Below are positions 8,489-61,971 of a stretch of 64,000 nt of DNA, piece by piece. Source of the stretch: Candidatus Dojkabacteria bacterium. Lineage in GTDB: Bacteria; Patescibacteriota; Dojkabacteria; B142; WJKM01. The notes beneath the pieces were generated by a model. That model had not been told where the DNA came from and ran no database searches. It saw only the letters and a program-made list of their open reading frames with translations. The stretch lies in contig WJKM01000006.1 of NCBI GenBank assembly GCA_014729085.1, positions 16,152 through 80,151 of the forward strand, in the 5' to 3' direction. Positions within the stretch are counted from its first letter, which is position 1; every line of letters starts with the position of its first letter. The position numbers were made by a program, and so were the translations under genes.

Positions 8489-8507
8489 AATTTTAAAATT
8501 AATTATT

Positions 8508-27171: not shown

Positions 27172-28248
27172 ATGGAATTTCAAGAAATTACAAGTAAAGA
27201 AGAGTGGAATAAATTTGTGCTTTTTAACCCCCATACAGATATATTACAATCTTGGGAATGGGGAGAAACAAAGAAAATTGAAGGATGGAAGCCTTATAGA
27301 TTTGGAGTTAAAGATGGTTTAGAAGAATATGGTTTTTCCGAGGGGGAGTTATTGGTTGGGGCACAAGTTTTGGTAAAGAAGTATAAGTTTTTTGGTAAGT
27401 TGGCCTATATACCTCATGGGCCGGTTTTTATCACCCCTCCAGACAGGGATCTGCCCAACGCATTATGGAAGAAATTTGAAAGAGGACTCATAAAATGGGC
27501 TAAAAAGAATAGGATTTTTACAGTAGAGCTTGAACCAAAAGCAACTTTTCATGAGGCAAGGTTTGGAGAATATAGATTTTTAGAAAATTGGAAAATAACC
27601 AAACGCAATAGACAGCCTAAATATAAACTAATTATGGATATTACCCAGTCTGAGAAAGAAATACTTGCAGGAATGAAAAAAAACACACGATATAATGTTC
27701 GTTATGCAAAAAGAAAAGGAGTAAAGATTAACAAGTATGATTTTAGTGATCCCAGCATTGATAAGGTTATTGATAGGTTTTACGATCTGGTTTTAAGGAT
27801 GCAGGAGAGAGCTGAAGGATATCCTGTTAGGCCGAAAAAATATTTTCAAAATTTAGTAGAACAATTCAAAGGTACTAAGAATATGATGTTCATTGAAGCT
27901 GAATACGATGGAGATGTTGTAGCGATGAATATTTCTCAATTTACTAAATTTTGGGCATCAAGTTTTTATGCGGGATCTATAAGAAAACATTCCAAAAAAA
28001 AGCCTCCTTATTTACTGAGATGGGCTTCGATTTTAGAGGCAAAGGAAAGGGGTTGTGATATATATGACTTCTGGGGAATTGTACCTGATTCCAAACACCA
28101 TAAGGGCTATAGCAAACATAAACTTAGTTTTGGTGGTGACCGTATTGATTTTGTTGGTGTGTTAATATATCCACTTTCTTGGAAAGCAAGGTTGTGGGAG
28201 ATAGCTATGTGGATACAAAAGAAGAAAGCAGAATTTAAGTGGAGTTAA
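27172..28248 (+). CDS. FemAB-family aminoacyl-tRNA-dependent peptidyltransferase, paralog 1
   Basis: FemAB/FemX-like pattern (QSWEWGETKK...KPYRFGV; NTRYNVRYAKRKGVKI). First of three tandem paralogs. Confidence 0.78.
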   Translation: MEFQEITSKEEWNKFVLFNPHTDILQSWEWGETKKIEGWKPYRFGVKDGLEEYGFSEGELLVGAQVLVKKYKFFGKLAYIPHGPVFITPPDRDLPNALWKKFERGLIKWAKKNRIFTVELEPKATFHEARFGEYRFLENWKITKRNRQPKYKLIMDITQSEKEILAGMKKNTRYNVRYAKRKGVKINKYDFSDPSIDKVIDRFYDLVLRMQERAEGYPVRPKKYFQNLVEQFKGTKNMMFIEAEYDGDVVAMNISQFTKFWASSFYAGSIRKHSKKKPPYLLRWASILEAKERGCDIYDFWGIVPDSKHHKGYSKHKLSFGGDRIDFVGVLIYPLSWKARLWEIAMWIQKKKAEFKWS

Positions 28249-28268
28249 TATAATTTTGATTAAGAAGA

Positions 28269-29291
28269 ATGGGACTCGAATTTAAAACAGTTAAACATAA
28301 GGATGAGTGGGATCAATTTGTGCAGGCTCTAAATAGATATTCTTTTGTACAAAGTTGGTCCTATACTCATGTTTTTGATACTTTAGCCGAAAGAGTAGAA
28401 CGAATAGGAGTTTATGACTCAAATGAACTCCGAGCTCTTTTGCCTCTTGGTATTATAAAAGCAAAGAGAGGAAACTATTTAAAGTTAAGACATGGACCCA
28501 TTCTTGCAGAAAAAGACAGTCAACTTTTTTCCGAAATTGTAAAATTTTTTAAAGATCTATCGAAAGAAGAAGATTTAAGTTTTGTTAGAATTCATCCTAT
28601 TATTGATGAGACATCTGTTTTAGAGGAAGAGGGTTTTAGACATGCTCCAACTCATAATCTTGATGGAGAAAAGACTCTGCAGTTGGAACTAAAAGGTAGA
28701 ACCGAAAAAGATATTAAGATGAGTATGCGAAAAAATACTAGATACTATATACGTAAGTCTTTTAGGGAAGGTGTGGAGATAGTTAAGGATAATGATGATT
28801 TCGAATCTTTTTATAAATTGTTTTTGAAAACAGCGGATCGGCAGCATTATACTCCCTGGCCAAAAAGATATTATCAAAAACTGTTCGATCAGTTTAAGCC
28901 GGGAGAAAGAAATTTATTTTTTGCGGAAGTAAAAGGAGAGAAGGTTGCTTTTGGTCTTTTTATTGATTACGGGAAATATAGGTTTTACAAAGAAGGAGGG
29001 ATGTTGATGAATTTTTCAAAATATTACCCGTCTTATGCTGTCCAATGGGCGGCCATTGCTGATGCGATGGATAAAGATATTGAAGTATATGATTTTTGGG
29101 GTGGAGTATCACCAAAAGATAAAGATGGAAATATAATAAAGAATTACCCCTGGGCAGGTATTAATTTATTTAAAGCCGGGTTTGGGGGAAAAGAGATAGG
29201 TATGGTTCATCCTCATGATTTACCTCTTGATTGGAAGTATTGGATTACCTGGGCTTTTGAGAGTATGGAAAAGTGGAAGAGAGGCTATTAA
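28269..29291 (+). CDS. FemAB-family peptidyltransferase, paralog 2
   Basis: Same architecture (VQSWSYTHVF..., NTRYYIRKSFREGVEIV, FKAGFGG). Confidence 0.78.
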   Translation: MGLEFKTVKHKDEWDQFVQALNRYSFVQSWSYTHVFDTLAERVERIGVYDSNELRALLPLGIIKAKRGNYLKLRHGPILAEKDSQLFSEIVKFFKDLSKEEDLSFVRIHPIIDETSVLEEEGFRHAPTHNLDGEKTLQLELKGRTEKDIKMSMRKNTRYYIRKSFREGVEIVKDNDDFESFYKLFLKTADRQHYTPWPKRYYQKLFDQFKPGERNLFFAEVKGEKVAFGLFIDYGKYRFYKEGGMLMNFSKYYPSYAVQWAAIADAMDKDIEVYDFWGGVSPKDKDGNIIKNYPWAGINLFKAGFGGKEIGMVHPHDLPLDWKYWITWAFESMEKWKRGY

Positions 29292-29342
29292 GAATCCTAA
29301 ATAATTCGCCATTTTTATTTCAGTTCAGAATATTTCAAGAGA

Positions 29343-30371
29343 ATGATAGAACAAGTTGAAAGCAAGGAGTTGTACAAAAAATTTTTTGCGAAAGAGAAAC
29401 TCTGTTTTTTACAATCCTGGGAATGGGGTGAAGTCAAGAAACCGAACTGGAAACCCATGCGTTTATTAGCAAATCAAATCCCAATTCAGATTTTTATTAG
29501 AAAAATTCCTGTTATTAATCAAAGTTTTGGGTATATACCTAGATTGTTAGATAAGAAGAATTTTACCCCAGAAATTCTCAAAAAATTAATCAATTTCTTT
29601 AAGTATGAAATTAAATTATCTCATCTAATAATTGAACCGAATTTAACTAAAGCTGATAATTTTGAAGACCTGAATAGTATCTTGAATAATTTAAGATTTA
29701 AAAAAACCGGCAGAACAATCCAGCCTAATTACACTAATATTATTGATTTAACCCAATCATATGAGGAAATTTTTGCCAATTTTCGTTCTACATATAGGAG
29801 AAATATTCGTAAAGCTAAAAAATTAGGTTGTAAATCCGCGATATTTGAAAAAGGTAATGAACCGTTATCAAGATTTTTTAGAATAATGAATGCAATTATG
29901 CAGAGAACTAAGTATGTGATGCATGGAAAAAAATATTTTGAAAAAGTATGGAATGAATTATCGAAATCAAATCAGGCAAAAATTTATATTATTTCGAGAA
30001 AAAAAGAAGATCTAGGAGCCCTTTTTGTTGTTTTTGATAACAAAGGGGCATATGAGCTATATGGTGGTATTAATGAAGCTGGGAGAAGGTATAGGGCTGG
30101 ATTTTTATTACGTGATGTATCGATTAAAGATTCAAAAGCAATGAGTAAAGAATTATATGACCAGTGGGGTGTCGCCGCGTTTTCCGAGGAAGGCTATTCC
30201 GAGAAAAGTGAGTTGGTAGGTGTTTCACGTTTCAAAGCAGGCTTTGGTGGTCAAGACATCGAATATTTTCCACAATATATATATGTGAATCATAAGCCTG
30301 GATATTTTGTCTACCGTCTAGGAGTATTTTTTAATAAAATGAAAATTAAATTTTCAAAAATTATTAGGTAA
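29343..30371 (+). CDS. FemAB-family peptidyltransferase, paralog 3
   Basis: LQSWEWGEVKK..., TYRRNIRKAKKLGCKS, FKAGFGGQ. Third tandem paralog. Confidence 0.75.
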   Translation: MIEQVESKELYKKFFAKEKLCFLQSWEWGEVKKPNWKPMRLLANQIPIQIFIRKIPVINQSFGYIPRLLDKKNFTPEILKKLINFFKYEIKLSHLIIEPNLTKADNFEDLNSILNNLRFKKTGRTIQPNYTNIIDLTQSYEEIFANFRSTYRRNIRKAKKLGCKSAIFEKGNEPLSRFFRIMNAIMQRTKYVMHGKKYFEKVWNELSKSNQAKIYIISRKKEDLGALFVVFDNKGAYELYGGINEAGRRYRAGFLLRDVSIKDSKAMSKELYDQWGVAAFSEEGYSEKSELVGVSRFKAGFGGQDIEYFPQYIYVNHKPGYFVYRLGVFFNKMKIKFSKIIR

Positions 30372-34789: not shown

Positions 34790-36310
<1,521 letters not shown>

Positions 36311-36533: not shown

Positions 36534-36580
36534 AACTCTGCAGAAGCCGTGCCTTGAAGGCAGGCAGGCAGAGTTTTTTT
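36534..36580 (+). terminator. Long imperfect hairpin (AACTCTGC...GCAGAGTT) plus T8 in the 16S-tRNA spacer; terminator-like or processing stem
   Basis: aactctgcagaagccgtgccttgaaggcaggcaggcagagttttttt read directly. Same outer stem as the rpsL-rpsG hairpin. Confidence 0.5.
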
Positions 36581-36713
36581 GTTTGTAAGACCTAATTTAA
36601 TGGTGTAAAATTATGGGCATGGATCTTTAAAAATAACTAATAGTTGGCAATATAATTTTGGTAATAGTTGGTTATCTGCCTGCCGTCAGGCAGGGAGCGC
36701 AAAAGTACAATGT

Positions 36714-36787
36714 GAGCCAGTAGCTCAGTTGGTTAGAGCGCTATCCTGATAAGATAGAGGTCCCTAGTTCAAATCTAGGCTGGCTCA
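36714..36787 (+). tRNA. tRNA-Ile (GAT)
   Basis: Acceptor GAGCCAG/CTGGCTC, D-arm GCTC-AGTTGGTTA-GAGC, anticodon loop CTGATAA, T-arm CCTAG-TTCAAAT-CTAGG, discriminator A. Flanked by a 9-bp inverted repeat (gtacaatgt / acattgtac) that extends the acceptor stem. Confidence 0.9.
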
Positions 36788-36849
36788 CATTGTACTTGTC
36801 CTGACCCGCCTGACCGAAATGATAGATTTATTAAATTTAGAGTTCAGTC

Positions 36850-36897
36850 GGGCAGGTAAGACTGAGGTCCGTGGTTCAAATCCACGATCGCTCACAG
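36850..36897 (+). pseudogene. Diverged tRNA 3'-half fragment (anticodon-stem to acceptor 3' strand) without 5' half
   Basis: caggtaagactgaggtccgtggttcaaatccacgatcgctcaca parallels the tRNA-Ile 3' half (T-arm CGTGG-TTCAAAT-CCACG), preceded by gggcagg. Confidence 0.5.
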
Positions 36898-36911
36898 GTC
36901 ATTTATAGAAA

Positions 36912-36957
36912 GGCAGGCGGGTAAGATAGAGGTCCCTAGTTCAAATCTAGGCTGGCT
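36912..36957 (+). pseudogene. Near-identical duplicate of tRNA-Ile 3' half (anticodon loop through acceptor)
   Basis: gggtaagatagaggtccctagttcaaatctaggctggctca matches tRNA-Ile positions ~33-73; the 5' half is replaced by aggcaggcgg. Confidence 0.55.
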
Positions 36958-37005
36958 CATGTTGTATCTATCTTTAATAATTATGTTTTTTGTTAGAATA
37001 AATTA

Positions 37006-37491
37006 ATGACTGATTCAGTAAAGATTGAAAGGTTATCCAGAAAGCATAGACAGGCAATCAGGAAATTGATGGATGAATTTTTTAAGGATTTTAATAGAGG
37101 CTTTCTTTTTACAGATAAATTAAGAAAATTAGAGGAGTATAAAAATATTGATCACGTCATTAAAAAGGAACTTGAGAAATATTTTGAATGGACAGGATTT
37201 GTTGCTATAAAGGATAATAAGATTGTTGGATATATTATTGGGCATATAAAAGAAGAAAAGCAGAAAGTTTTAGAAAGGAAGGGATGTATTGAAGAGTTTT
37301 TTGTAACAGAGAATAAAAGGGGAGAGGGTGTTGGAAGGTTGCTTATGAACAGAATTATTAAGTATTTTGAAAAAAAGAAATGCGATGTTTTGGCAATAGA
37401 AGCTTATTCTGTTAATAAGAAGTCTATAGATTATTATAGAAAATTAGGTTTTGTTGATTTTAGTATGAAGTTGGTTAAGAGAATTAATTAG
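37006..37491 (+). CDS. GNAT family N-acetyltransferase
   Basis: GNAT motif block (IVGYIIGHIK...EEFFVTENKRGEGVGRLLMNRIIKYFEKKKCDVLAIEA). Embedded between tRNA clusters. Confidence 0.75.
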   Translation: MTDSVKIERLSRKHRQAIRKLMDEFFKDFNRGFLFTDKLRKLEEYKNIDHVIKKELEKYFEWTGFVAIKDNKIVGYIIGHIKEEKQKVLERKGCIEEFFVTENKRGEGVGRLLMNRIIKYFEKKKCDVLAIEAYSVNKKSIDYYRKLGFVDFSMKLVKRIN

Positions 37492-37505
37492 TTGTTTAAT
37501 AGATA

Positions 37506-37571
37506 TGGGGCTGTGGTAGTCACGCTTGCGTGGCAAGGCCACTTGAAGGTTCAAGACCTTCGGCTCCACCA
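37506..37571 (+). ncRNA. Aberrant tRNA-Ala-like minihelix element with encoded CCA
   Basis: tRNA-Ala-type acceptor with G3:U70 (5' GGGGCTG with 3' CGGCTCC), A73 and encoded CCA, and a T-arm-like hairpin. Lacks the D and anticodon arms, which are replaced by a GC-rich hairpin (CACGCTTGCGTGGCAAGGCCAC). Confidence 0.4.
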
Positions 37572-37602
37572 AGTTGTACAACGATACCATTGTTTGCAAA
37601 AT

Positions 37603-37677
37603 GGGGCTGTAGCATAGCTGGTCTATTGCGCTTCATTTGCAATGAAGAGGTCGCGGGTTCGAATCCCGCCAGCTCCA
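37603..37677 (+). tRNA. tRNA-Ala (TGC)
   Basis: Acceptor GGGGCTG/CAGCTCC with G3:U70 identity pair, anticodon loop TTTGCAA, T-arm GCGGG-TTCGAAT-CCCGC, discriminator A. No encoded CCA. Confidence 0.88.
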
Positions 37678-37725
37678 TTTTGCAAACAAGAGAATTTCCC
37701 AATACACAAGAAAACTAATGAGATG

Positions 37726-37824
37726 ATAGCTGGTCTATCCTGCCTGCGTGACTGCATCAGCAGTCAGGCAGGTGCGCTTCATTTGCAATGAAGAGGTCAC
37801 GGGTTCGAATCCCCCAGGCTCCAA
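37726..37824 (+). pseudogene. tRNA-Ala remnant lacking 5' acceptor, with a GC-rich hairpin inserted at the D/anticodon junction
   Basis: gatagctggtctatc (D-arm-like), insertion CCTGCCTGCGTGACTGC-atca-GCAGTCAGGCAGG, then tgcgcttcatttgcaatgaagaggtcacgggttcgaatcccccaggctcca (anticodon arm to acceptor 3' strand). Confidence 0.5.
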
Positions 37825-38030
37825 GCGATTCAGAGCTTTCACCTCCTCACTTATAGTAAAACTTGTTTCGAATCGAAGGATAGTGAGCATGTCGAACTAC
37901 ATTGGAATATATAGAATTTGGTGATAAAATATTGGTGTTGATTTCTATCAAACTTTAATTTTTTCCAGCAACAAATCGAGAAAATTTATTTTGATAGAAA
38001 TTTAGAGTTAATGTATGAATGTAAATCGTA

Positions 38031-39641: not shown

Positions 39642-40482
39642 AGAAGTCTCCAAGCAAAAAGAAATTCCTAAGATTTTAAAATTTTATTCTCTTTCAGGCC
39701 TTATTTCTATTCAAAGAATTTCAGTTGGTTTGGCTAATGATAATTTTTTAGTAAAGACAAAACAAGGCGAATATGTTTTGAAATTTATCAATGCTTATCG
39801 AAATGAAATATTCAAAAATGATTTAGCAATACAAAGAAAGTTAAAAGAACTGGGTATTCGTAGTCCAGTTTATATTAGAAATTTAAGTGGAGATTATATT
39901 TATCGGAAGGGTAAATATAGAGTTGTTGTTTCAAAGAAGGTTAGAGGAGTAAGACCTAGAAAAGTTAGCATAAAACTTGCGTATTCAATTGGGAGAGTGT
40001 TGGCACAATTTCATTTAGGGATTACAGATTTGCCTAATAGTATACAAGGATGGATGAATGTAAATTCTGATGATTCCAAAACAGCAAAAATTTTGAGAAA
40101 AGCAGATCTTCCCATTGGTATTACTCATGGGGATATGCACGAGGGGAATATCCATGTTTTGGATAAAAAGAAGGACAAGGTCTATGCAATATTTGATTTT
40201 GAAGAAGCGGGAGAAGATCTTTTAGTTGTTGATTTAGCTAGATCTATACTTGCGGTTTGTGTTGAAGAACAAGGAACAAAGATAGATGAGAGATTAATGG
40301 AATCAGAAATTAAGGGCTATCAATCCATCAGATTACTTGAAGAAAATGAGAAAATACATTTTGGTAAAGCTTTTACTCATGCTGTCGATAAGTGCATAAA
40401 GTGGTTTTCAGAAAATGATTTTGAAAGATATATAGAAAATCATAAATTAAGACTAAAGAGTTTTCGTTCGCCTTTTGAGTAA
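39634..40482 (+). CDS. APH/ChoK-family kinase-like phosphotransferase
   Basis: Brenner-type catalytic motif ITHGDMHEGNIHV and DFE metal-binding motif (IFDFEEAG). Confidence 0.65.
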   Translation: MNKEVSKQKEIPKILKFYSLSGLISIQRISVGLANDNFLVKTKQGEYVLKFINAYRNEIFKNDLAIQRKLKELGIRSPVYIRNLSGDYIYRKGKYRVVVSKKVRGVRPRKVSIKLAYSIGRVLAQFHLGITDLPNSIQGWMNVNSDDSKTAKILRKADLPIGITHGDMHEGNIHVLDKKKDKVYAIFDFEEAGEDLLVVDLARSILAVCVEEQGTKIDERLMESEIKGYQSIRLLEENEKIHFGKAFTHAVDKCIKWFSENDFERYIENHKLRLKSFRSPFE

Positions 40483-40507
40483 TCAATTATTAAGAATCTT
40501 ATTAATT

Positions 40508-40765
40508 ATGTATTATCTTTACATCTTACTTTGTTCCGATAAGTCCTTGTATACAGGGATTACTAATAATATTGAGAATAGGTTACAGACACATAGAGAT
40601 GGGGAGGGATCTAAATATGTCAGATCAAGGCTACCTTTTAGATTGATATACACAGAAAAATTAGAAAATAAATCTAAAGCTTTACGGAGAGAATTGGAGA
40701 TTAAAAGCTGGAGCAGGGAAGAGAAAATTAAAAATCTAAACCTTAAATTGAGTTTTTCGATTTGA
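40508..40765 (+). CDS. GIY-YIG nuclease domain protein (small, UPF0213-like; start at internal ATG, ORF opens 40475)
   Basis: YYLYILLCSDKSLYTGITNNIENRLQTH plus a conserved Arg/Glu downstream (RRELEIKSW). Confidence 0.7.
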   Translation: MYYLYILLCSDKSLYTGITNNIENRLQTHRDGEGSKYVRSRLPFRLIYTEKLENKSKALRRELEIKSWSREEKIKNLNLKLSFSI

Positions 40766-49165: not shown

Positions 49166-49600
49166 ATGAACTTAGAATTTCTTGCAAATACATTAGCGTT
49201 AACATCAACTCCTCGTGAGGAGATAGCTCAGTATGTAGCTGAATATTCTAAAACAGTAAGTTTATGTGCATTTGAGGCGGTAATGGGAGAACTTGACCAG
49301 ATGGAAGACAATGAGAAATTAGGGGATTTAGTCAATTTAGTTGGAGAACTGCATCAGCATAAAACAAGTTTAGATATTGCAGATGAAGAAAAGACAAAAG
49401 CATTTTATGACAGGTTTGAAGTTTTGATGAATTCGGTTATGGAGTTGCCTGAGGCAGAGAGAATAAAGGAAAGGATTGAGGAGGAAATAGATGCATTAGA
49501 CCAAGAAGTTGTTGACGAAATAATAGCAAAATGCACAGAAGAAGATAGAGAGAGAATATTAGAAGCTACTCAGGCGGTCCTTCAGGCCACTGAAGAATAG
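49166..49600 (+). CDS. Acidic hypothetical protein
   Basis: 144 aa, strongly acidic. Confidence 0.4.
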   Translation: MNLEFLANTLALTSTPREEIAQYVAEYSKTVSLCAFEAVMGELDQMEDNEKLGDLVNLVGELHQHKTSLDIADEEKTKAFYDRFEVLMNSVMELPEAERIKERIEEEIDALDQEVVDEIIAKCTEEDRERILEATQAVLQATEE

Positions 49601-49770
49601 AAGATTTCTGGAAAAACTTGGGAAATACATTAGAGCAGAGTGCATCATTCACAATTTCTATGTTTAGATTTACTATTAAATGAGATATCTGAATGTTTTA
49701 ATAGGTTCTAAATAGTTGAATTTCTGACTCTAGTGGTTTATAGTAAATTAGGTAGATAAAATTTTAATCT

Positions 49771-50088
49771 ATGCTTATGGGAGAGATAGATCCTGCCCAA
49801 TCAAAAGAAAAAAGTATAAAAGAGCATTTAGAAGGGGGATGGGCTTCTAAAGTATTGGAATGGCTGAAAGAGGATGGAGGCAAGAATTTACTCTTGCTCG
49901 GTTTAACAGTTCCGCTTGCGAATTTATTAACAGGAGGGGCCTTATTTGATGTTGTCGAAGGTGGGGCAGATACTTTAGCTGATGGAGTTGGAATGGTTCT
50001 AGAGGAAGGTGAGGAAGGAACAAGAGCAATACTTGAAAAACTTGGTGGTTTCACAACCAATTTAGCAGAAGAGCCCGCTGGTCCTTAG
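49771..50088 (+). CDS. Small protein of the N-terminal helix paralog family
   Basis: GWASKVLEWLKEDGGKNLLLLGLTVPLANLLTGGALFD shares the W..K.N..LLL.G...A.NL module. Confidence 0.45.
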   Translation: MLMGEIDPAQSKEKSIKEHLEGGWASKVLEWLKEDGGKNLLLLGLTVPLANLLTGGALFDVVEGGADTLADGVGMVLEEGEEGTRAILEKLGGFTTNLAEEPAGP

Positions 50089-50139
50089 ACGTAACAATTT
50101 GTAAGAAAACTTTATTAATTTAAATATAAACTAAACAGT

Positions 50140-51144
50140 ATGGAAACAAGAGAAACCCCACTTCCACCAGCAAGGGAAAGACCATTTGGAGAAAAGGTAA
50201 AAGAAGATGCAAAAGGAATTCTTGGAGGTCTAAAGGAAGGTATTAAAAAATATCCAGGAATTGCATTATTAGTTGGGCTTGGATCACTTGCTGGACTTGA
50301 AGCATCAAGTATTTTGGATGAACCCTTAGAAGAAGCTGGTATTGGAGAAGGGCATGGACTTGCTACTTTAGACGAGGCCCTAATGCAGGATGATGAATAT
50401 ATAGCAGAATTAGAAGCAGAAGGATTGATTATGAGGAAAGGCGAGGAATTCAATGGCGAGACTCTGGAGACTGATGTGGTGGTTTTTGATCCAGAAGAAC
50501 CTGATGCTGCTGTTAAAGAGTTAAATACATTTAATCTATTTTCTCATTGGCTTGGAGAGACTAGCTGGTTTGGTGAAAATGTTATAGATCCGATCGAGGA
50601 TGCTTTTGATGAGGAATCTGCTGAACCTACAGAACCTGTAGAACCCGCAGAACCCGCAGAACCTGCTGAAGTTGCTACTACAAGATTTTCTAATTTCACA
50701 TTTGCAGAATTCCTAGAGGAGTATCAAAGCCATTTAGATAGTGGTGGAGCTTTAACTGGTTCTAATAATTTAGTAACAGAATTGCAAAACGAAATGTCTC
50801 GACGAATTCCTGATGAATTTGAAGGGCAAGAAGCAAACTTAAGAGAAATGTGGGATCAGATCAATAGCTTGGAGAGGGATCTTAGTAGGGCACCAACACC
50901 GGAAGCTCAAGCACAAATAGACCTATATAAGCTTTACTTAGAAGACGCATTGGGTCCTGAACCAGGCCAATTGGAGAGTATTAGACAACTAGAGACCGAA
51001 CTTGCAGATCTTCAGACAGAATTAGACGCAATGGGAGACCCACAAGATGACGTAGAGGCTTGGGCATACGGTAATTTACAATCTCAGATACAAGGAAAGC
51101 AAGATGAACTAGATGCTATATTCAATCCTGCAACAGGAGAATGA
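50140..51144 (+). CDS. Acidic protein with EPxEP repeats, paralog family member
   Basis: N-terminal GILGGLKEGIKKYPGIALLVGLGSLAGLEAS. EPTEPVEPAEPAEPAE repeats. Acidic. Confidence 0.5.
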   Translation: METRETPLPPARERPFGEKVKEDAKGILGGLKEGIKKYPGIALLVGLGSLAGLEASSILDEPLEEAGIGEGHGLATLDEALMQDDEYIAELEAEGLIMRKGEEFNGETLETDVVVFDPEEPDAAVKELNTFNLFSHWLGETSWFGENVIDPIEDAFDEESAEPTEPVEPAEPAEPAEVATTRFSNFTFAEFLEEYQSHLDSGGALTGSNNLVTELQNEMSRRIPDEFEGQEANLREMWDQINSLERDLSRAPTPEAQAQIDLYKLYLEDALGPEPGQLESIRQLETELADLQTELDAMGDPQDDVEAWAYGNLQSQIQGKQDELDAIFNPATGE

Positions 51145-51194
51145 GAATAAGGATCTTTGTGTATTAGACTAATTTATTGCCTTAACTTATTAAA

Positions 51195-52352
51195 ATGACA
51201 GAGTTCGAAAGAACAATTACAGAAGAAGAACCTCAACCAGAAGAAAGAAAGACATTAGGGCAGAAAGCGAAGGAATTTTTAGATAAAAACATGGCTAAAT
51301 TCCTTGGTGTTGCAGCAGTTGCCGGTCTTGGTGTTGCAGAATACTACGATCTTTTCGGAGTGGATTTTACTAGTTTTGATGAGGTTGCACTTCGCGGAGA
51401 ACCCCCCGAACCAGATGCAGAAAATTTATACGACGAGCCTTTTGATTTAGCTGAAGATGCTGAATTTACGGACAGGTTTGCCTATTGGGTAGAGCATTTC
51501 TGGCAACTTAATCCCTTTAAAACGCCAGTTGCAGCGGAACCTTTGCCAGATGGCTTTTCTGATAGTTTTGATGTAGAGATTGAAGGAAATGATAATTTTA
51601 ACGATATATTCCCAAAGACAGAAGATTATGAAGATTTTGAAGAACGGTTCAGCCAATACCTGGAAGATATCTATGAAGGTTTGGAGGATCAATATCAGAA
51701 TGAATATACATCCGCAGAAAGAGCAGCGAAAGCAGCAGGACAGACACTTGACGATGAGACTATTGAGGAGATGAGGGAAACATATATTTGGGGTCAGGAA
51801 TTAGTGCATGATTTTAGGAATGTTAATTCGGTTGAAGACTTCCGGAGTTTTCTTGATGATCTACCTGCGAGCATGATTAAGGATATGGGGAATTCGATTC
51901 CTGAGATATATAGGCTAGGATTGGTAAGCGATGAGCAGTTGAATCAAATTGCCCAGGAGGCTGCTTCTGCATCCTCCACCTTTGGCGGACCAGATCAAAT
52001 TCCGCAACTTCAATATGAGGCTTTTGAGGGACTCAGACAGGTTGGGCGATTTGATGAAGATGCAGATGTTCAAAGATTTTTATATCATCTTTCCGGAACT
52101 ATTGATACGGAACTGCCACCAGGAGACCAAACTGGATCAGAATTTGACCAATTTGATGCCTTTTCAAGCTTGCTGAGAGCCAATAACGAAGATGATGTAG
52201 AGCAGGTTTTACAAGGAGTTGTAAGTCAACTTAAGAGTCAGGATAATTATGGTGGCATATTACATGAATACGAATTTCTTCGAGAATATTTAGGTCTGAC
52301 ACCTGAGGAGTTAGAATTTTTATATCCTTCAGAAAGTGAATCAACCACATAA
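51195..52352 (+). CDS. Acidic protein, paralog family member
   Basis: N-terminal KEFLDKNMAKFLGVAAVAGLGVAEYYD. 385 aa, very acidic. Confidence 0.5.
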   Translation: MTEFERTITEEEPQPEERKTLGQKAKEFLDKNMAKFLGVAAVAGLGVAEYYDLFGVDFTSFDEVALRGEPPEPDAENLYDEPFDLAEDAEFTDRFAYWVEHFWQLNPFKTPVAAEPLPDGFSDSFDVEIEGNDNFNDIFPKTEDYEDFEERFSQYLEDIYEGLEDQYQNEYTSAERAAKAAGQTLDDETIEEMRETYIWGQELVHDFRNVNSVEDFRSFLDDLPASMIKDMGNSIPEIYRLGLVSDEQLNQIAQEAASASSTFGGPDQIPQLQYEAFEGLRQVGRFDEDADVQRFLYHLSGTIDTELPPGDQTGSEFDQFDAFSSLLRANNEDDVEQVLQGVVSQLKSQDNYGGILHEYEFLREYLGLTPEELEFLYPSESESTT

Positions 52353-52460
52353 TTTTTGTTTCTATATAGTAATAATATTTGTCACAGCCCTTTCTATATC
52401 CTTATAGTTTTTGATATAATCACCACATCAAAATTTTTTAAATAAACTCAGGGCAGGTTA

Positions 52461-52489
52461 TTGACCTTTTTACAATCTTATAGTATAAT
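52461..52489 (+). promoter_or_regulatory. Consensus sigma70-like promoter TTGACC-17-TATAAT containing the ATCTTATAG box
   Basis: ttgacctttttacaatcttatagtataat read directly, about 40 nt upstream of the 52530 ORF. Nearly identical -10 region to the 44702 promoter. Confidence 0.55.
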
Positions 52490-52529
52490 TTATCAATTGT
52501 TTATACTTATTTATTAGTTACATACTAAA

Positions 52530-52751
52530 ATGGAACAACAACCACAAGAACCAGGATTTTTAGAAAAAGCATGGAATTGGGCTAAAGATAATTCAACTTT
52601 GCTTCTTTCTATTGTTGGGGCAACTTTGGCAGCAGATGCTGTAAACCTAACTGACATGTGGCCAAACTTTGGAGAAGAAGATGCAGATGATCCAGTTGCT
52701 AGAATTGAAGCTCTTGATTTCTGGGGAAGACCAGAAGATGCTGATGCTTAA
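52530..52751 (+). CDS. Small acidic protein, paralog family member
   Basis: FLEKAWNWAKDNSTLLLSIVGATLAADAVNLTDMWPNF then acidic tail. Confidence 0.5.
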   Translation: MEQQPQEPGFLEKAWNWAKDNSTLLLSIVGATLAADAVNLTDMWPNFGEEDADDPVARIEALDFWGRPEDADA

Positions 52752-52791
52752 TTTTTAATATTTAATAATTTAATTTTGAAATTTTAATATT

Positions 52792-53514
52792 ATGGCAGAT
52801 TATCCAGAACAAAGACCTTCGACCTTAGAGAGAATAGGTGACTGGGTTAATAGAAACAAGGAGGCATTGCTTCTAACCCTTGGTGGTTTGATGACTTCAG
52901 AAGCTATCAATCTTACAAATATAGTACCTGATGATTTTATTAGAAATGCTGTAGAGAATCAGTGGGGTGAAGACGCCTTCATTGATGAGGATCCAATTTT
53001 AGATTGGTTTCCTGAGGATGATTGGGATAGTTTTCAGATTTTTCCTAATATCAATTCTCCTTGGGACAGTGACATTGTTCCTGTTAATAGGGCAGAAAAG
53101 AATTATTATACAAATGCATTCTCGACAGTCGTCGAAAACCAATTCACTGGGGATGATGCAGACGATATAGCCCAAGAAATTGAGGGCTACACTGATGACG
53201 CTCTTGAGTTGGTAATCAATGATAACCCAGATGCACTTGGTACTGCTATAAGTGGTCTGACTGATGTTGATAATCTAGCCGAATATAGAACTTGGGTTGA
53301 AAATTTACCTGATGAGTATGAGGAAGAGTTTACAGCAGCTCTTGCAAGACGAGCACCTGAATCTTTAGAGTTACTTACAGATCAACAAGTTGTAGATCTT
53401 GCAGATGAGTTGTTTGGGGATGAAAGTAGTGAGGTCGAGGATATGGAAAGCGAAGGCGGGTTAGCAGATCAGGCAGAGTTCATAAGGGATGAAGCTATGG
53501 AAGATTTTGATTAG
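52792..53514 (+). CDS. Acidic protein, paralog family member
   Basis: LERIGDWVNRNKEALLLTLGGLMTSEAINLTNIVPDDF aligns with the 52530 N-terminus. Acidic, Trp-rich. Confidence 0.5.
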   Translation: MADYPEQRPSTLERIGDWVNRNKEALLLTLGGLMTSEAINLTNIVPDDFIRNAVENQWGEDAFIDEDPILDWFPEDDWDSFQIFPNINSPWDSDIVPVNRAEKNYYTNAFSTVVENQFTGDDADDIAQEIEGYTDDALELVINDNPDALGTAISGLTDVDNLAEYRTWVENLPDEYEEEFTAALARRAPESLELLTDQQVVDLADELFGDESSEVEDMESEGGLADQAEFIRDEAMEDFD

Positions 53515-53549
53515 AAAAAGGTCAGATTAGATTCGAATCTGAAATTTAA

Positions 53550-53577
53550 AGAGCAGCAGAAATGCTGCTCTTTTTTT
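53550..53577 (+). terminator. Intrinsic terminator
   Basis: AGAGCAGCA-gaaa-TGCTGCTCT followed by T7. Confidence 0.8.
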
Positions 53578-53957
53578 GTGTATTTGAGGTTTTTGTTCGA
53601 ACTAGGAATATTGTTGAGCATGTTTTTAGATGTACTCCCTTGATTGTTACTCAAGATTCCGTTTTACGGCCGGAATGATATAGAGAGATCCGTTCCCGAT
53701 CCCCGCTAGTATGCCACATTGATATTGGATATTGGAGGTATGTAAAAAAGCTAAAAATAACATTAAAGGGTCAATACTCTGAATTCTACGTAACCAAGCA
53801 GAAATGAAGTAAGGTTGATGACTTCTTCCTATGTCATTTCTGTGAAAATAGGAATCTTTCGTCGTTTCAGCATTCAGCTTACTTCAATACCGTTTTTTAC
53901 ACGCAAGCTTCTGGCTCTTCGGCCGGAATAAGATGGGGATTGACGATTTTTTATATC

Positions 53958-54133
53958 ATCTCTGTACGCCCATGTCATCCCTGTATCCCCATGTCATCTA
54001 TATAGCCCCTATGCCATCCCTGTTTTTTTATATCATCCCTGCTTTTTATGTCATCCCTGTTTTTTTTTATGTCCTCCCTATTTTTTTGTCATCCCTGTTT
54101 TTTTATGTCATCCCTGCGAAAGCAGGGATCTAC
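53958..54133. repeat. Tandem array of ~8 copies of a 12-bp unit ATGTCATCCCTG separated by 6-9 nt T-tracts (period ~20 bp), ending in a hairpin TCCCTGC-gaaa-GCAGGGA
   Basis: Read directly: catgtcatccctg..atgtcatc..atgccatccctg ttttttt atatcatccctg cttttt atgtcatccctg ttttttttt atgtcctcccta ttttttt gtcatccctg ttttttt atgtcatccctg cgaaagcaggga. The ORF 53933..54199 in the track is a translation artefact of this array. Confidence 0.75.
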
Positions 54134-54266
54134 CCAGCTTTAACACTCATTTTTCCCCAAGGAATATTAATTGACATATTTCATTTGGCAGAATTATAAC
54201 CTATGAGTCAATGGTTATATAAATTCTGATATAATTTTTTTGATTTTACTTATAATTTTTGGAGTA

Positions 54267-54512
54267 ATGCCTGAGGAACAAACAGTTCTTCCAGAAAGCC
54301 AAAGGACAAGAGACAGCCTAAAAGATAAACTTCTTTTTGCAACAGGTGTAGCTCTAGGTCTATTAACTCATGTTCCCGAGCTGTTAATATCAGGAGCTGC
54401 AGTTACTGGGGGACTATATTTAGCAGGGAAGCTCACAGGAGTAATACCTGAGGATCAGGATTTTAAAACAACAGTAAGGCGGGCTTCGGATGCAATAAAA
54501 GAAACATTGTAA
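54267..54512 (+). CDS. Small protein with central hydrophobic helix (ORF opens 54240; likely start ATG 54267)
   Basis: LLFATGVALGLLTHVPELLISGAAVTGGLYLAGKL. A TGaTATAAT extended -10 sits about 35 nt upstream (54224..54232). Confidence 0.4.
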   Translation: MPEEQTVLPESQRTRDSLKDKLLFATGVALGLLTHVPELLISGAAVTGGLYLAGKLTGVIPEDQDFKTTVRRASDAIKETL

Positions 54513-54644
54513 CAATTTGCAGTTTCTCTACCTTTCTTTTGTTCTGTTTAAGGTACTGTGGTATTATGAATTAAATCAATTTAATATTGATTGTTTATCG
54601 ATTTATATATAGAATAGATAGAATAAGTTTTTATTTGCACTTTA

Positions 54645-54968
54645 TTGTCGGAAACTTTAAATGAAACTGTAAAAAATAACTGGTTTCCTGTGCTTTTAGG
54701 ATTTGGTGGAGCATTGGCTGGACTTCATATATCAGGTGCCATGCCAATTGATGTAACTTGGGAATTTTTTGAGAATGCTGGTGAACGAACAGTCGAAGGG
54801 ATTAAGTATATTTTGGATATTGGGAATCAGCCTCATGAAGTTGCTTTAGAAGGAATAGGATCTCTTCCTCCTGATGAAGTTGATGATTTTCTTACTTGGG
54901 ATAGGATGAATGATTTACAAGCAGCATCGGATGAATTGGCTAATGAATTATCTGTTCCTCAACGATAA
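54645..54968 (+). CDS. Small acidic protein, paralog family member
   Basis: NNWFPVLLGFGGALAGLHISGAMPIDVTW N-terminus. Confidence 0.45.
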   Translation: MSETLNETVKNNWFPVLLGFGGALAGLHISGAMPIDVTWEFFENAGERTVEGIKYILDIGNQPHEVALEGIGSLPPDEVDDFLTWDRMNDLQAASDELANELSVPQR

Positions 54969-55004
54969 ATATAATATTTTAATTTTTAATATTAAATAAA
55001 TTCA

Positions 55005-55448
55005 ATGAAAGAATTAAAAGAACTTTTCGGAAAAATTTTAAATCATCTTGGCATTGTTGGTAAAGAAACTGAAGATATTACTAAAACATTTTTTAATCAA
55101 GTGTATGCGATCTTTATTGAAGATGTATTAAAAAAAGAGCTTCCTAAAGAAACATTTGACCGTAGAATCAAGGAGTATCAGGTTTATATAAAAGAGGGAA
55201 AGCATGAATTAGTACACAAGGATGTAAAACACTATATTAAAAAAGATTCCGGAAAATTGTTTGCAAAGGCATTTTTAAAGCATCTTAAATTCTTCGTATA
55301 TGGCTTGAAAGAAAAAGGGGATGTTACTCAAGAACAAATCAAACAGATAGGTGATATTTTGAAAAACCATATACAGGGAAAGCAGGCACTTGATAAAATG
55401 AAGAATAAAGAAAAGGGAAAAGAAGCTTTAAATACTTTGGCAAGCTAA
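55005..55448 (+). CDS. Lysine-rich hypothetical protein
   Basis: 147 aa ORF, K-rich, no motif. Confidence 0.4.
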   Translation: MKELKELFGKILNHLGIVGKETEDITKTFFNQVYAIFIEDVLKKELPKETFDRRIKEYQVYIKEGKHELVHKDVKHYIKKDSGKLFAKAFLKHLKFFVYGLKEKGDVTQEQIKQIGDILKNHIQGKQALDKMKNKEKGKEALNTLAS

Positions 55449-55490
55449 TTAAAACATAATTCAAAAAGTTTGTTTTTTGTTATCTTATAG

Positions 55491-55519
55491 TTTACAAACT
55501 ATAATTAATTTGCTATAAT
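55491..55519 (+). promoter_or_regulatory. Sigma70-like promoter TTTACA-17-TATAAT, preceded by ATCTTATAG box
   Basis: atcttatagtttacaaactataattaatttgctataat read directly. Confidence 0.55.
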
Positions 55520-55548
55520 GGATACATACTAAATAAAAAAGTCAAATA

Positions 55549-55617
55549 ATGAATAAAAAATTGATGCAACAAAACCTACTAAACCTCCTTCTAGTCCTAA
55601 CCGGATTTAGCGGGTAG
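55549..55617 (+). CDS. Leucine-rich leader peptide MNKKLMQQNLLNLLLVLTGFSG (attenuator candidate for paralog A)
   Basis: 22-codon ORF hand-translated. 7 Leu including a LLNLLLVL run (codons CTA CTA AAC CTC CTT CTA GTC CTA). ORF embedded in a long-range stem (TTGATGCAACAA 55561-72 with TTGTTGCATATCAA 55618-31). GCGGG at the ORF end can pair with the CCCGC arm of the downstream terminator. Confidence 0.5.
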   Translation: MNKKLMQQNLLNLLLVLTGFSG

Positions 55618-55650
55618 TTGTTGCATATCAATTAATTTCTCAAAAAATAA

Positions 55651-55674
55651 CACCCGCGAAAAGCGGGTTTTTTT
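55651..55674 (+). terminator. Intrinsic terminator (attenuator) CCCGC-gaaaa-GCGGG plus T7, 110 nt upstream of paralog A
   Basis: acacccgcgaaaagcgggttttttt read directly. Confidence 0.75.
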
Positions 55675-55784
55675 ATTTTAAGAAAATAAAAAAGGTTTGC
55701 CAGAGGCAAGATAGTACCAAAAAGGATTTTTTAGAGAAATTTTTTTATACAAATTAAAAATATTATAAATTTGAAATTCTAATC

Positions 55785-57587: not shown

Positions 57588-57677
57588 CGAATTAACTGGA
57601 TTTTTTATTAAAAATTTGCATATAATACAGCTGCAAATTTAAGAATTTAGAAATTAAAGCCTGTTTATCTTATAGTG

Positions 57678-57706
57678 TTGACAAATTCTAGAAATTGTAA
57701 TATAAT
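57678..57706 (+). promoter_or_regulatory. Consensus sigma70-like promoter TTGACA-17-TATAAT preceded by ATCTTATAG box
   Basis: atcttatagtgttgacaaattctagaaattgtaatataat read directly. Confidence 0.55.
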
Positions 57707-57742
57707 AAGAATATAATAAATTTAATATAAAATTTTTTTATA

Positions 57743-57787
57743 ATGAGAAAGAATTTCTTACTTGACAGCGTGATTATTATCCCTTAA
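57743..57787 (+). CDS. Ile/Leu-rich leader peptide MRKNFLLDSVIIIP (attenuator candidate for paralog B)
   Basis: 14-codon ORF with GTG ATT ATT ATC run. ORF end CCCTTAA can pair with TTAGGG. GGGGT (57793-97) can pair with the ACCCC arm of the terminator (antiterminator alternative). Confidence 0.45.
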   Translation: MRKNFLLDSVIIIP

Positions 57788-57829
57788 CCTTAGGGGTAGA
57801 TTTTGCTATCTAGTAAGAAATCAGATTTA

Positions 57830-57852
57830 CCCCGAGACATCGGGGATTTTTT
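57830..57852 (+). terminator. Intrinsic terminator (attenuator) CCCCG-agacat-CGGGG plus T6 upstream of paralog B
   Basis: accccgagacatcggggatttttt read directly. Confidence 0.75.
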
Positions 57853-57887
57853 ATATTTATAGAATTTTTAATTTTAATTAAATTACC

Positions 57888-59717: not shown

Positions 59718-59749
59718 GATCAATTAGTAAGTTATTTATAATAAGAAAA

Positions 59750-59815
59750 ATGAATCAAATATTTTTAAATAACAATGTAGTGGTGGTGGTTGAACCTCGC
59801 TTAAGCGGCGGCTAG
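59750..59815 (+). CDS. Valine-rich leader peptide MNQIFLNNNVVVVVEPRLSGG (attenuator candidate for paralog C)
   Basis: 21-codon ORF with five consecutive Val codons (GTA GTG GTG GTG GTT). CGCTTAAGCG hairpin, and GGCGG at the ORF end complementary to the CCGCC arm of the downstream terminator. Confidence 0.5.
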   Translation: MNQIFLNNNVVVVVEPRLSGG

Positions 59816-59847
59816 ATCCTGCATGCATTGTTTACTGAATAATCTAT

Positions 59848-59871
59848 ACCCGCCAAAAGGCGGGTTTTTTT
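59848..59871 (+). terminator. Intrinsic terminator (attenuator) CCCGCC-aaaa-GGCGGG plus T8 upstream of paralog C
   Basis: acccgccaaaaggcgggttttttt read directly. Confidence 0.75.
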
Positions 59872-59966
59872 GTTTGTAACAAGTTAAATCCTGCCACCTG
59901 CCAGAGGAAAGGGATAAGATTTACTTTACAACTTTATCAGTTTTTTAAATTTTAAAACTAAATAAT

Positions 59967-61760: not shown

Positions 61761-61890
61761 ACTTGAAAAATTATAACATTTAAAAGATACTCATTTTTTA
61801 TGTTACTCTTTATATTGTCTTAAATCATTACTAAAAAAGGAAAAGTCGATTTTGTCTAGTAGGGTTTTATGTTACGTTTTTATTAATAAA

Positions 61891-61926
61891 AATCTTTAAA
61901 GCATTTCGTTTTAAAGATTTTTTTTG
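61891..61926 (+). terminator. Intrinsic terminator after paralog C
   Basis: AATCTTTAAA-gcatttcgtt-TTTAAAGATT plus T-run. Confidence 0.65.
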
Positions 61927-61971
61927 TATAGTGTATTAGGAAAGATTTTAAATACAAAAATTATTAAATCC

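Follow-up and report, generated by a model that had tools for sequence, protein, structure and literature searches.

A conserved minihelix RNA gene and interrupted tRNA copies in the 16S rRNA operon spacer of a Dojkabacteria genome

Minihelix RNA gene in the 16S rRNA operon spacer

The window analysed here is a stretch of 64,000 nucleotides from the genome of a Candidatus Dojkabacteria bacterium (GenBank assembly GCA_014729085.1, contig WJKM01000006.1, positions 16,152 to 80,151). The tRNA spacer behind its 16S rRNA gene includes a 65-nt gene (37507..37571, + strand) for an alanine-type minihelix RNA. This is a conserved, structured RNA gene, identified by its fold and by nine homologous sequences that show covariation, and it is apparently undescribed so far: the 37507-37571 sequence gave no match to any Rfam 15 family at E ≤ 10, and no description of such a minihelix gene was found in the literature. 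With modest confidence, the whole region is viewed as two clamped working tRNAs, the conserved minihelix gene, and dead copies of tRNA-Ile and tRNA-Ala, several of which are interrupted by a palindrome. The 16S rRNA gene itself lies at 34790..36308 (+ strand; Rfam RF00177, 1423.5 bits). Rfam searches of all 64 kb revealed no 23S rRNA gene; hence, the 16S operon is unlinked, and the region is its tRNA spacer. The G+C content of the window is ~35%, and nearly all genes are on the + strand.

The window minihelix folds with a free energy of -30.5 kcal/mol (z = -3.06) into a 6-bp acceptor helix (G1-C72, G2-C71, G3:U70, G4-C69, C5-G68, and U6:G67), a central hairpin, and a 5-bp T stem with the loop UUCAAGA, followed by A73 and an encoded CCA. 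A sequence-only reading of the window had described such an RNA at 37506..37571, with G3:U70, A73, CCA and a T arm and with neither D nor anticodon arm, and the fold is as described there.

For comparison, loci mostly from Dojkabacteria (numbered L007 etc.) were aligned against the window spacer. Thirteen of these were retrieved by a scan with the lineage-specific 3' end of 16S rRNA and four more by a metagenome scan with the minihelix pattern, two of the latter repeating earlier ones (L019 = L007 and L022 = L008). As the window 16S rRNA gene is just 81–83% identical to the full-length 16S genes of these loci, the spacer comparisons are deep.

Nine distinct minihelix sequences were found: in the window, L007 (= L019), L008 (= L022), L009, L010, L012, L020 and L021, and as a variant in L015. 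Their length ranges from 53 to 87 nt, and the 16S rRNA genes of the genomes that carry them are just 81–88% identical. All but one are located between tRNA-Ile and tRNA-Ala (8/9), the L015 copy being placed after tRNA-Ala. The consensus fold includes a central hairpin of variable length that opens with an invariant G7-C pair, a 2-nt linker, and a 5-bp T stem with the loop U-K-C-A-A-G-N. In the alignment of the nine sequences, 97.8% of the cells pair, and compensatory changes are seen in 7 of 16 pairs. The covariation score is 0.392, as compared with 0.136 ± 0.026 for shuffled alignments (0/500 reach it) and ≤0.120 for slid-register controls; a seven-sequence version of the test was also run. 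Covariation in the central and T helices was not constrained by the search patterns.

The pairs G1-C72, G2-C71, G3:U70, and G4-C69 are kept in all nine sequences. T precedes G1 (position -1) in eight, and eight end with ACCA. The acceptor identity elements for alanyl-tRNA synthetase (AlaRS), i.e. G3:U70, A73, G2-C71/G4-C69, and CCA, are present, although in part they were imposed by the search patterns. The L010 and L015 members were found by covariance model and have the same fold; the latter ends with ACAA and has C6. The nine sequences served as the seed of a covariance model (R1) for what is a candidate RNA family overlooked by current annotation.

Origin and relatives of the minihelix

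In L015, a ~100-nt leader of tRNA-Ala (…gatcgaaagaggaggaa.ttgcgaa…ttgtttacaa…) is repeated before the minihelix-like copy (1345-1450 and 1612-1720, - strand), which lies ~120 nt ahead of the 23S rRNA gene. Hence, the minihelix probably originated by tandem duplication of the leader together with tRNA-Ala, the D and anticodon arms then being lost and a short variable hairpin taking their place. A leader similar to that of L015 precedes tRNA-Ala in L020. The encoded CCA had been suggested to mark an RNA-derived or mobile-element-borne copy. This is unsupported, as the minihelix is vertically conserved across deep Dojkabacteria lineages and several relatives encode CCA in their ordinary tRNAs. 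No match to the minihelix was found in viral contigs.

The minihelix belongs among the tRNA-like RNAs and is the most valuable part of the region. It has in common with the synthetic acceptor-TΨC minihelices of tRNA-Ala used in AlaRS and FemX studies (PMC2175331) the coaxial acceptor and T arms, G3:U70, A73, and CCA. Unlike these, it is natural, genome-encoded, and conserved; it includes an extra central hairpin, giving a three-way junction, a 6+5 bp stack, and the T loop U-K-C-A-A-G-N, and its charging is a prediction.

The tRNA-like domain of transfer-messenger RNA (tmRNA) shares with the minihelix the GGGGCUG...CUCCACCA termini, G3:U70, the encoded CCA, the T arm, and a helix at the place of the anticodon arm. 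Unlike tmRNA, the minihelix comprises just 53–87 nt, contains no tag reading frame, pseudoknots or D-loop analogue, and would derive from tRNA-Ala according to the leader duplication in L015. ARAGORN scans of the window and of other loci were negative for tmRNA, and the Rfam tmRNA models gave no match on 37507-37571. The possibility that the minihelix is a tmRNA, permuted or not, was rejected, the only match being a chance one of 12.8 bits elsewhere.

Two other kinds of tRNA-type genes outside translation may be compared. The non-proteogenic tRNA-Gly isoacceptors of Staphylococcus aureus (PMC7826273) are extra genes of this kind that supply Fem enzymes, and three FemAB paralogs are encoded in the window (see below). 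Unlike the minihelix, which has no D and anticodon arms, they are full cloverleafs with anticodons, and the Fem link of the minihelix is speculative. The tRNA-Other gene of Bacillus cereus (PMC3399842) is also tRNA-like and has no translation function. It is a full-size pseudo-tRNA beside a genomic island and shows no sequence or architectural relation to the minihelix.

Possible functions of the minihelix

The minihelix is located within the rRNA-tRNA transcription unit and, in L012, L021, and L008, just 3–15 nt from the flanking tRNAs. The best guess from the sequences is that it would be excised like a tRNA, charged with alanine, and unable to decode. Excision of this kind is suggested by T at position -1, which suits RNase P, together with the encoded CCA; alanylation by AlaRS is suggested by the retention of all acceptor-stem identity elements, and the RNA would be unable to decode because it has no anticodon. 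Thus, the minihelix may act as an alanine carrier or a mimic of tRNA-Ala that is produced together with rRNA.

Several points weigh against this interpretation. Seven of the nine sequences were found with patterns demanding GGGGCY...GCTCCACCA, and the invariance of the acceptor helix and CCA is thus partly due to ascertainment. The sample is small, ~14 distinct Dojkabacteria spacers. Furthermore, the acceptor helix (6 bp) and the T stem (5 bp) stack to 11 bp instead of the usual 12, and position 55 in the T loop is G in most copies; hence, recognition by tRNA enzymes is not guaranteed.

Alternatively, the minihelix could be a processing signal only, that is a tRNA-shaped mark at which the spacer transcript is cut by RNase P and 3' nucleases so as to free inserted mRNAs (e.g. 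that for a GNAT acetyltransferase); the minihelix itself would never be charged and would have no function once free. This is the main alternative to an alanine carrier and is regarded as possible but doubtful. It is consistent with the position of the minihelix, always within the rRNA-tRNA transcript and, in three genomes, right after the stop codon of an inserted gene (15 nt past the GNAT gene in the window and L020, and 6 nt past an open reading frame (ORF) for a tRNA-binding protein in L008), and T at -1 in 8/9 copies fits it as well. However, in L012 and L021 the minihelix is placed directly between both tRNAs, with no ORF to free. Nor would a cleavage signal alone need G3:U70, A73, and an encoded CCA, which are kept even where the real tRNAs have no encoded CCA, though this retention is partly a matter of ascertainment.

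As to what an alanine carrier could serve, both AlaRS and the FemX alanyl transferase accept synthetic minihelices, microhelices, and even a duplex derived from tRNA-Ala as working substrates in vitro (PMC2175331). FemX relies on the cytosines of G1-C72 and G2-C71 (PMC2175331, PMC2655667), and the Fem enzymes of S. aureus are supplied by non-proteogenic tRNA-Gly species (PMC7826273). The window includes three tandem genes of the FemAB family of aminoacyl-tRNA-dependent peptidoglycan transferases (27172..30371, + strand; Pfam PF02388, E = 2e-35, 3e-32, and 2e-18), 5–8 kb upstream, and their nearest NCBIfam model is the FemX alanyltransferase, under its cutoff. Thus, two features expected of a Fem donor are present, Fem-family genes encoded in the window and invariant G1-C72 and G2-C71 pairs. 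A more specific proposal is that the minihelix is a natural, non-decoding alanine carrier, charged by AlaRS and made in step with rRNA, which would be the dedicated donor for FemAB-type transferases or another aminoacyl-tRNA-dependent enzyme. In this specific form, the proposal is judged unlikely.

Linkage of Fem and rRNA genes is seen in some lineages only. The order Fem-MurG-orf112 is also found in L027 and L035, of which L027 is from the same assembly as the minihelix-bearing L009. The minihelix-bearing L019 and L034 have the order ligase-orf112-16S, without Fem genes there. As a separate observation, the window segment 27172-32956 contains the three Fem genes, an ORF of 453 aa without a family match, and MurG, and is followed by orf112 (DUF4870) and 16S; in other relatives, which lack the Fem block, the order is PolA-DeoR-Fic-ligase-orf112-16S.

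Minihelices composed of acceptor and T arm are known as classic laboratory constructs and as a favoured model of tRNA before it acquired the anticodon domain. A natural gene for a CCA-ending alanine minihelix across a bacterial class would show that living cells use such molecules. If the carrier role is true, it would be the first case of a minihelix adaptor encoded in a genome, an extreme form of the staphylococcal non-proteogenic tRNAs, and it would offer an experimental handle on the purpose of a non-decoding aminoacyl carrier, be it cell-wall synthesis, regulation, or quality control. The relevance would be greatest in bacteria of the candidate phyla radiation, to which Dojkabacteria belong and whose translation and envelope biology is poorly known.

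Intact tRNA genes and their extended stems

The only tRNAs called in the region by ARAGORN and Rfam are tRNA-Ile(GAT) at 36714..36788 and tRNA-Ala(TGC) at 37602..37678. Both pass the 29-bit gathering threshold of RF00005 (72.5 bits for 36714-36787 and 70.3 bits for 37603-37677), and neither includes an encoded CCA. The sequence-only reading, which had taken the latter for a bona fide tRNA-Ala(TGC) and the genuine tRNAs to have no encoded CCA, agrees with these results.

Each of the two genes is enclosed in an extended stem. That of tRNA-Ile is perfect, 18 bp long and 100% complementary (36703-36720 / 36780-36797; whole feature 36703..36797, + strand; fold z = -6.85), and that of tRNA-Ala has 20 bp and is 95% complementary (37590-37609 / 37670-37689; whole feature 37590..37689, + strand; fold z = -5.77). 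Extended stems of tRNA-Ile, with 13–14 contiguous pairs in the flanks, were found only in the window, L007 (441-533), and L020 (on the reverse strand around tRNA-Ile), which are the three genomes with Ile fragments. Plausibly, the stems act as clamps that would hold the 5' strand of each true tRNA to its own 3' strand, away from an identical decoy 3' half transcribed nearby. As side observations, the extended stems, on which the sequence-only reading had been silent, pair the discriminator base and take the place of CCA. Furthermore, the window tRNA-Ala (37602-37678) is identical to that of L010 (1014-1089), though the tRNA-Ile genes of the two loci differ at many positions and the shared 3' part of their 16S genes is just 84.8% identical.

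tRNA pseudogenes

Three partial tRNA copies accompany the intact genes. Ile pseudogene 1 (36800..36894, + strand) consists of a CCTGA remnant of the anticodon loop (36800-36804), a 52-nt palindromic insert with decayed arms CCCGCCTGACCG (36805-36816) and TCAGTCGGGCAGG (36844-36856), and the tRNA-Ile 3' half from T36 (36857-36894), which reads TAAGACTG... after the insert. The insertion point is CTGA^TAAG. Ile pseudogene 2 (36911..36966, + strand) combines a remnant of the right arm, AGGCAGGCGGG (36911-36921), with a 3' half (36922-36959) matching the resident tRNA-Ile at 38/38 positions from T36 to A73; the similarity runs about 6–7 nt past the gene. The Ala pseudogene (37720..37823, + strand) shows a diverged acceptor strand, a D arm with a 5-nt deletion, a D-loop piece (37726-37738) matching at 13/13 positions, and 92% identity over the 51 nt of its 3' part (37773-37823). 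The two tRNA-Ala pieces are separated by a 34-nt insert (37739-37772) with the structure CCTGCCTGCGTGACTGC-ATCA-GCAGTCAGGCAGG.

Two tandem tRNA-Ile 3' halves, one diverged and one near-identical, had been noticed in the sequence-only reading, which agrees with 73% identity over a 45-nt register for the first and 38/38 for the second. That reading was right about the first fragment as such but not about the sequence before it, where 'CAGTC' is part of the right arm of the insert (TCAGTCGGGCAGG) and not of a tRNA stem. An own, compensated anticodon stem of this fragment was considered and dropped, since L007 shows 'CAGTC' to be an insert arm. Of what had been said of the third Ala copy, the hairpin insertion is real, but the 5' acceptor strand is diverged (GAGATGA vs GGGGCTG) rather than lost.

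Covariance models do not call the fragments ordinary tRNAs. The Ala pseudogene, whose T stem is broken, scores 18.3 bits vs the 29-bit threshold, and neither the two Ile pseudogenes nor the minihelix gave an Rfam tRNA match at E ≤ 10. The view of the fragments as partial duplicates without function, and of the minihelix as something out of the ordinary, is supported.

The 3' half of Ile pseudogene 1 is of a different, consensus-like type with the acceptor strand ATCGCTCA, and it is nearer to tRNA-Ile of L010, L020, and L009 (35/39, 35/41, and 34/39, respectively) than to the resident gene (32/40), which is an outlier in the class by sequence comparison. Hence, on these sequence comparisons, it is probably the remnant of an older tRNA-Ile of consensus type that has since been replaced.

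Similar copies are present in relatives. In L007, a second tRNA-Ile copy follows the intact gene. It starts in the D loop (GGTTAGAGCACGGTtCTGA), is interrupted between anticodon bases 35 and 36, and past the insert (TAAGACC...CTGGCTCA) is identical to the intact gene (39/39). In L020, other hairpin inserts break the T loops of two pieces, one from the 3' part of tRNA-Ile and one from the T arm of tRNA-Ala. The spacer is probably subject to local duplication, or to recombination anchored in conserved tRNA sequences. Local duplications go beyond the tRNA copies, as shown by the leader in L015 and by L008/L022, where each of the two tRNAs is followed by a nearly exact copy of a ~80-nt trailer with a long hairpin (ggcttgcagaaaaatgctaaagcattttcttccagcc). 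Redundant tRNA copies would then decay after being struck by the palindrome, whereas an old duplicate of tRNA-Ala would have been retained as the minihelix.

Apart from these copies, very stable hairpins (z about -4) were observed 30–130 nt after tRNA-Ala in L007 (1203-1238), L021 (5154-5203, - strand), L010 (950-979, - strand), and L020 (about 105-130, - strand). They begin with GAGAG, end with ...GGCUCCACA, GGACUCCACA or GGCUCCAACA, and occupy the place of the Ala pseudogene of the window, which also begins with ATGAGA. These hairpins may be a further-reduced derivative of tRNA-Ala or a terminator.

GC-rich palindrome

The inserts represent one asymmetric element with arms of 13 and 17 nt (CCTGCCTGACTGC / GCAGTCAcgCAGGCAGG), the longer arm having a 4-nt bulge. 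The insert of L007 is 61 nt long (CCTGCCTGACTGC...GCAGTCAcGCAGGCAGG) and splits the tRNA-Ile copy exactly at CTGA^TAAG, which is the same anticodon position, 35/36, as that of the insert in Ile pseudogene 1 of the window. Its arms are exact reverse complements of the arms in the Ala pseudogene of the window (CCTGCCTGcgtgACTGC / GCAGTCAGGCAGG), i.e. the two elements agree at 30/30 arm positions in opposite orientation, whereas the 16S rRNA genes are 82.7% identical.

A compact copy, (T)CTGCCTG-CCGT-CAGGCAG(G), is located 19 nt upstream of tRNA-Ile (36675..36694, no strand assigned; fold -17.6 kcal/mol, z = -2.28), one of its arms being identical to CCTGCCTGACTGC at 12/13 positions. The copies at 36675, 36805/36844, and 36911 are decayed. 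A further GC hairpin, GCC-TGCCT/AGGCA-GGC (36546..36580, + strand), recognised by its fold, overlaps two arm-like repeats (GGCAGGCAGGCAG; arm matches with two mismatches at 36556 and 36560) and is followed by seven T; it looks like a terminator. Among the relatives, an arm precedes tRNA-Ile by about 50 nt in L009, and the central hairpin of the L010 minihelix carries a one-mismatch variant (CCTGTCTG/CAGACAGG).

The motif CAGGCAGG occurs six times in 64 kb vs 0.64 expected, four of these within 36561..37772. Arm matches with ≤2 mismatches number 12 vs 1.3 expected, 11 of them in spacers beside tRNA-Ile, tRNA-Ala or their copies, and there was no arm match elsewhere in the 64-kb window outside the rRNA spacer. 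Thus, the GC hairpin that had been noted to recur at tRNA loci (36676..36697 and 36557..36573) is enriched and spacer-confined, and it is not a genome-wide repeat. Another motif, 'ACGAAGTGA', which recurs in some spacers, is absent from the window spacer and not enriched in the window.

The insertion sites are between anticodon bases 35 and 36, in the D loop (Ala pseudogene), and at an intergenic site upstream of tRNA-Ile. When an insert is taken out, the uninterrupted tRNA sequence is regained, and none of the junctions shows duplicated bases. The palindrome would thus enter tRNA loops without target duplication and either move between lineages or be re-copied within the spacer. The 30/30 identity of the arms across such 16S divergence argues for horizontal movement of the element, as judged from the sequences, unusually strong constraint being the alternative. 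Against mobility stand the confinement of the copies to this spacer, their very low number, the reliance of the argument on the 30/30 identity, which functional constraint could also explain, and the finding of no transposase or recombinase for the palindrome. A scan of viral contigs gave three chance matches to the palindrome, without the full right arm and not at a tRNA.

Miniature inverted-repeat transposable elements (MITEs) and the Rickettsia palindromic elements are small palindromic mobile repeats that insert into genes. The palindrome resembles them in being short, in its inverted-repeat ends, in its location inside copies of RNA genes, and in having identical ends in divergent genomes. 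Unlike MITEs, it shows no target-site duplication, has very few copies, is confined to the rRNA spacer in the sequence examined, measures 20–61 nt, and has no known partner transposase. A palindrome at a defined position in tRNA loops, together with clamped tRNAs beside decoys, illustrates how an essential tRNA locus present in one copy deals with invasion.

Origin of the interrupted copies

The fragments had been interpreted as scars of tyrosine-recombinase integration and excision. According to this explanation, elements carrying a tRNA 3' half integrated in the anticodon or T loops of tRNA-Ile and tRNA-Ala and decayed or were excised imprecisely, leaving attR halves and the inverted repeats bound by the integrase. 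Anticodon and T loops are the loops favoured by tRNA-targeting integrases, and the displaced Ile 3' halves begin exactly in the anticodon loop, at T36, while the breaks in L020 sit in T loops. The fragments are direct repeats downstream of intact genes (38/38, 73%, and 92%), as in integrase att sites, where an intact tRNA is followed by a repeat of its 3' part from the anticodon loop. Moreover, the sequence of Ile pseudogene 1 is of a foreign type, and small accessory genes are close by (GNAT, tRNA-binding protein, and others).

However, a Pfam scan of 48 window ORFs revealed no recombinase domain; ~20 of these ORFs have no Pfam match at all, so that an unrecognised recombinase may be encoded, which is a point against our interpretation of the copies. 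The gaps between intact tRNA and fragment are 60 nt (Ile to the unit of pseudogene 1), 15 nt (between the two Ile pseudogenes), and about 48 nt (tRNA-Ala to the Ala pseudogene) and contain no ORF, i.e. no element lies between the repeats, and the GNAT gene is outside the fragment intervals, downstream of Ile pseudogene 2. The insert junctions share no direct repeat or common core (CTGA|CCTGCC and GGCAGG|TAAG in L007; TCTAT|CCTGCC and GGCAGG|TGCGC in the window). Furthermore, the insert is preceded on its 5' side by more tRNA sequence (D arm in L007, D loop in the Ala pseudogene), which indicates insertion into a tRNA copy and not an att boundary. The palindrome is present also in a D loop and upstream of tRNA-Ile, and the viral contigs scanned contain neither the Ile 3' halves nor the palindrome. 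The scar mechanism is thus poorly supported and considered improbable, and such tRNA fragments should not automatically be read as integrase scars.

According to a second explanation, the copies with hairpins are working genes, namely intron-containing or split tRNA genes like those of archaea, with the GC hairpin as the splicing helix. The inserts are placed precisely in loops, their removal restores tRNA sequence, and GC-rich complementary arms recall the leaders of split tRNAs. However, the copies have no usable 5' acceptor strand and D arm, the 5' exon parts being missing or degenerate; the T stem of the Ala pseudogene, at 18.3 bits, is broken; the two junctions lie opposite one another at the foot of a single continuous helix, which leaves no bulge-helix-bulge; and intact genes for both tRNAs adjoin the copies. 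This explanation is close to refuted.

An assembly artefact, i.e. chimeric joins, would be another source of broken copies, as rRNA regions are easily misassembled in metagenome-assembled genomes. Against this, independent assemblies agree: L007 and L019, which come from a GenBank metagenome-assembled genome and a JGI metagenome, respectively, show no difference over 3 kb, the layout of the ENA contig L020 is equivalent, and the minihelix recurs in nine distinct sequences. An artefact is therefore very improbable. The reading of the copies as redundant tRNA duplicates interrupted by a palindrome is preferred to all three.

Neighbouring genes and genomic context

The GNAT acetyltransferase gene located in the spacer ahead of the minihelix (37006..37491, + strand; Pfam PF00583, E = 6e-17) has an ortholog in L020, which occupies the corresponding place there (44% identity over 156 aa, E = 6e-47). 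A homolog search with the GNAT protein matched only the protein itself, and the GNAT encoded beside the HD gene in L001 is not homologous to it. A specific role, e.g. as a toxin that acetylates aminoacyl-tRNA, was considered and found unsupported, NCBIfam giving only generic matches below threshold, with RimI the best.

The tRNA-binding ORF of L008 (1301-1618, the same as 9301-9618 in L034) encodes a free-standing tRNA-binding-domain protein (PF01588) like Trbp111, CsaA, and the C-terminal domain of MetRS. L008 has also a second GNAT gene (Acetyltransf_3) after tRNA-Ala (1914-2438). In the window, a further ORF with a GNAT domain (8376-9194) follows rpsL and rpsG and, as listed, overlaps the end of rpsG; GNAT genes seem to adjoin genes of the translation apparatus in this genome.

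Spacer layouts differ widely. L015 and L018 have compact 16S-Ile-Ala-23S operons. Other spacers measure 0.3–2.7 kb from 16S to tRNA-Ile and 0.27–0.87 kb from tRNA-Ile to tRNA-Ala, or extend several kb ahead of 23S. In relatives, 16S is linked to 23S compactly, lies kilobases apart from it, or is followed by no tRNAs (L011, L013, L014, L016, and L028). A degenerate pattern for the tRNA-Ile 3' half gave no match in species-representative genomes, and no sampled species shares these tRNA-Ile sequences. A synteny search by means of the downstream HD gene returned only unrelated contexts.

In L009, the 16S-to-Ile spacer contains, at about 713-1075, a ~120-aa ORF that by eye, and by eye only, resembles a MazG-type nucleotide pyrophosphohydrolase; a run of N (605-614), either masked or a scaffold gap, is located just upstream of it. 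In the remaining 26 kb of the window, 16S and the Ile and Ala tRNAs are followed by genes for HD-domain, metallo-beta-lactamase-fold, and phosphotransferase proteins rather than by 23S. Ten consecutive + strand ORFs (107–609 aa) at 49166-62373 have no Pfam match at E ≤ 1e-4. A small, stand-alone ORF with a GIY-YIG nuclease domain is present a few genes past the HD gene both in the window (40475-40765) and in L001 (6645-6893).

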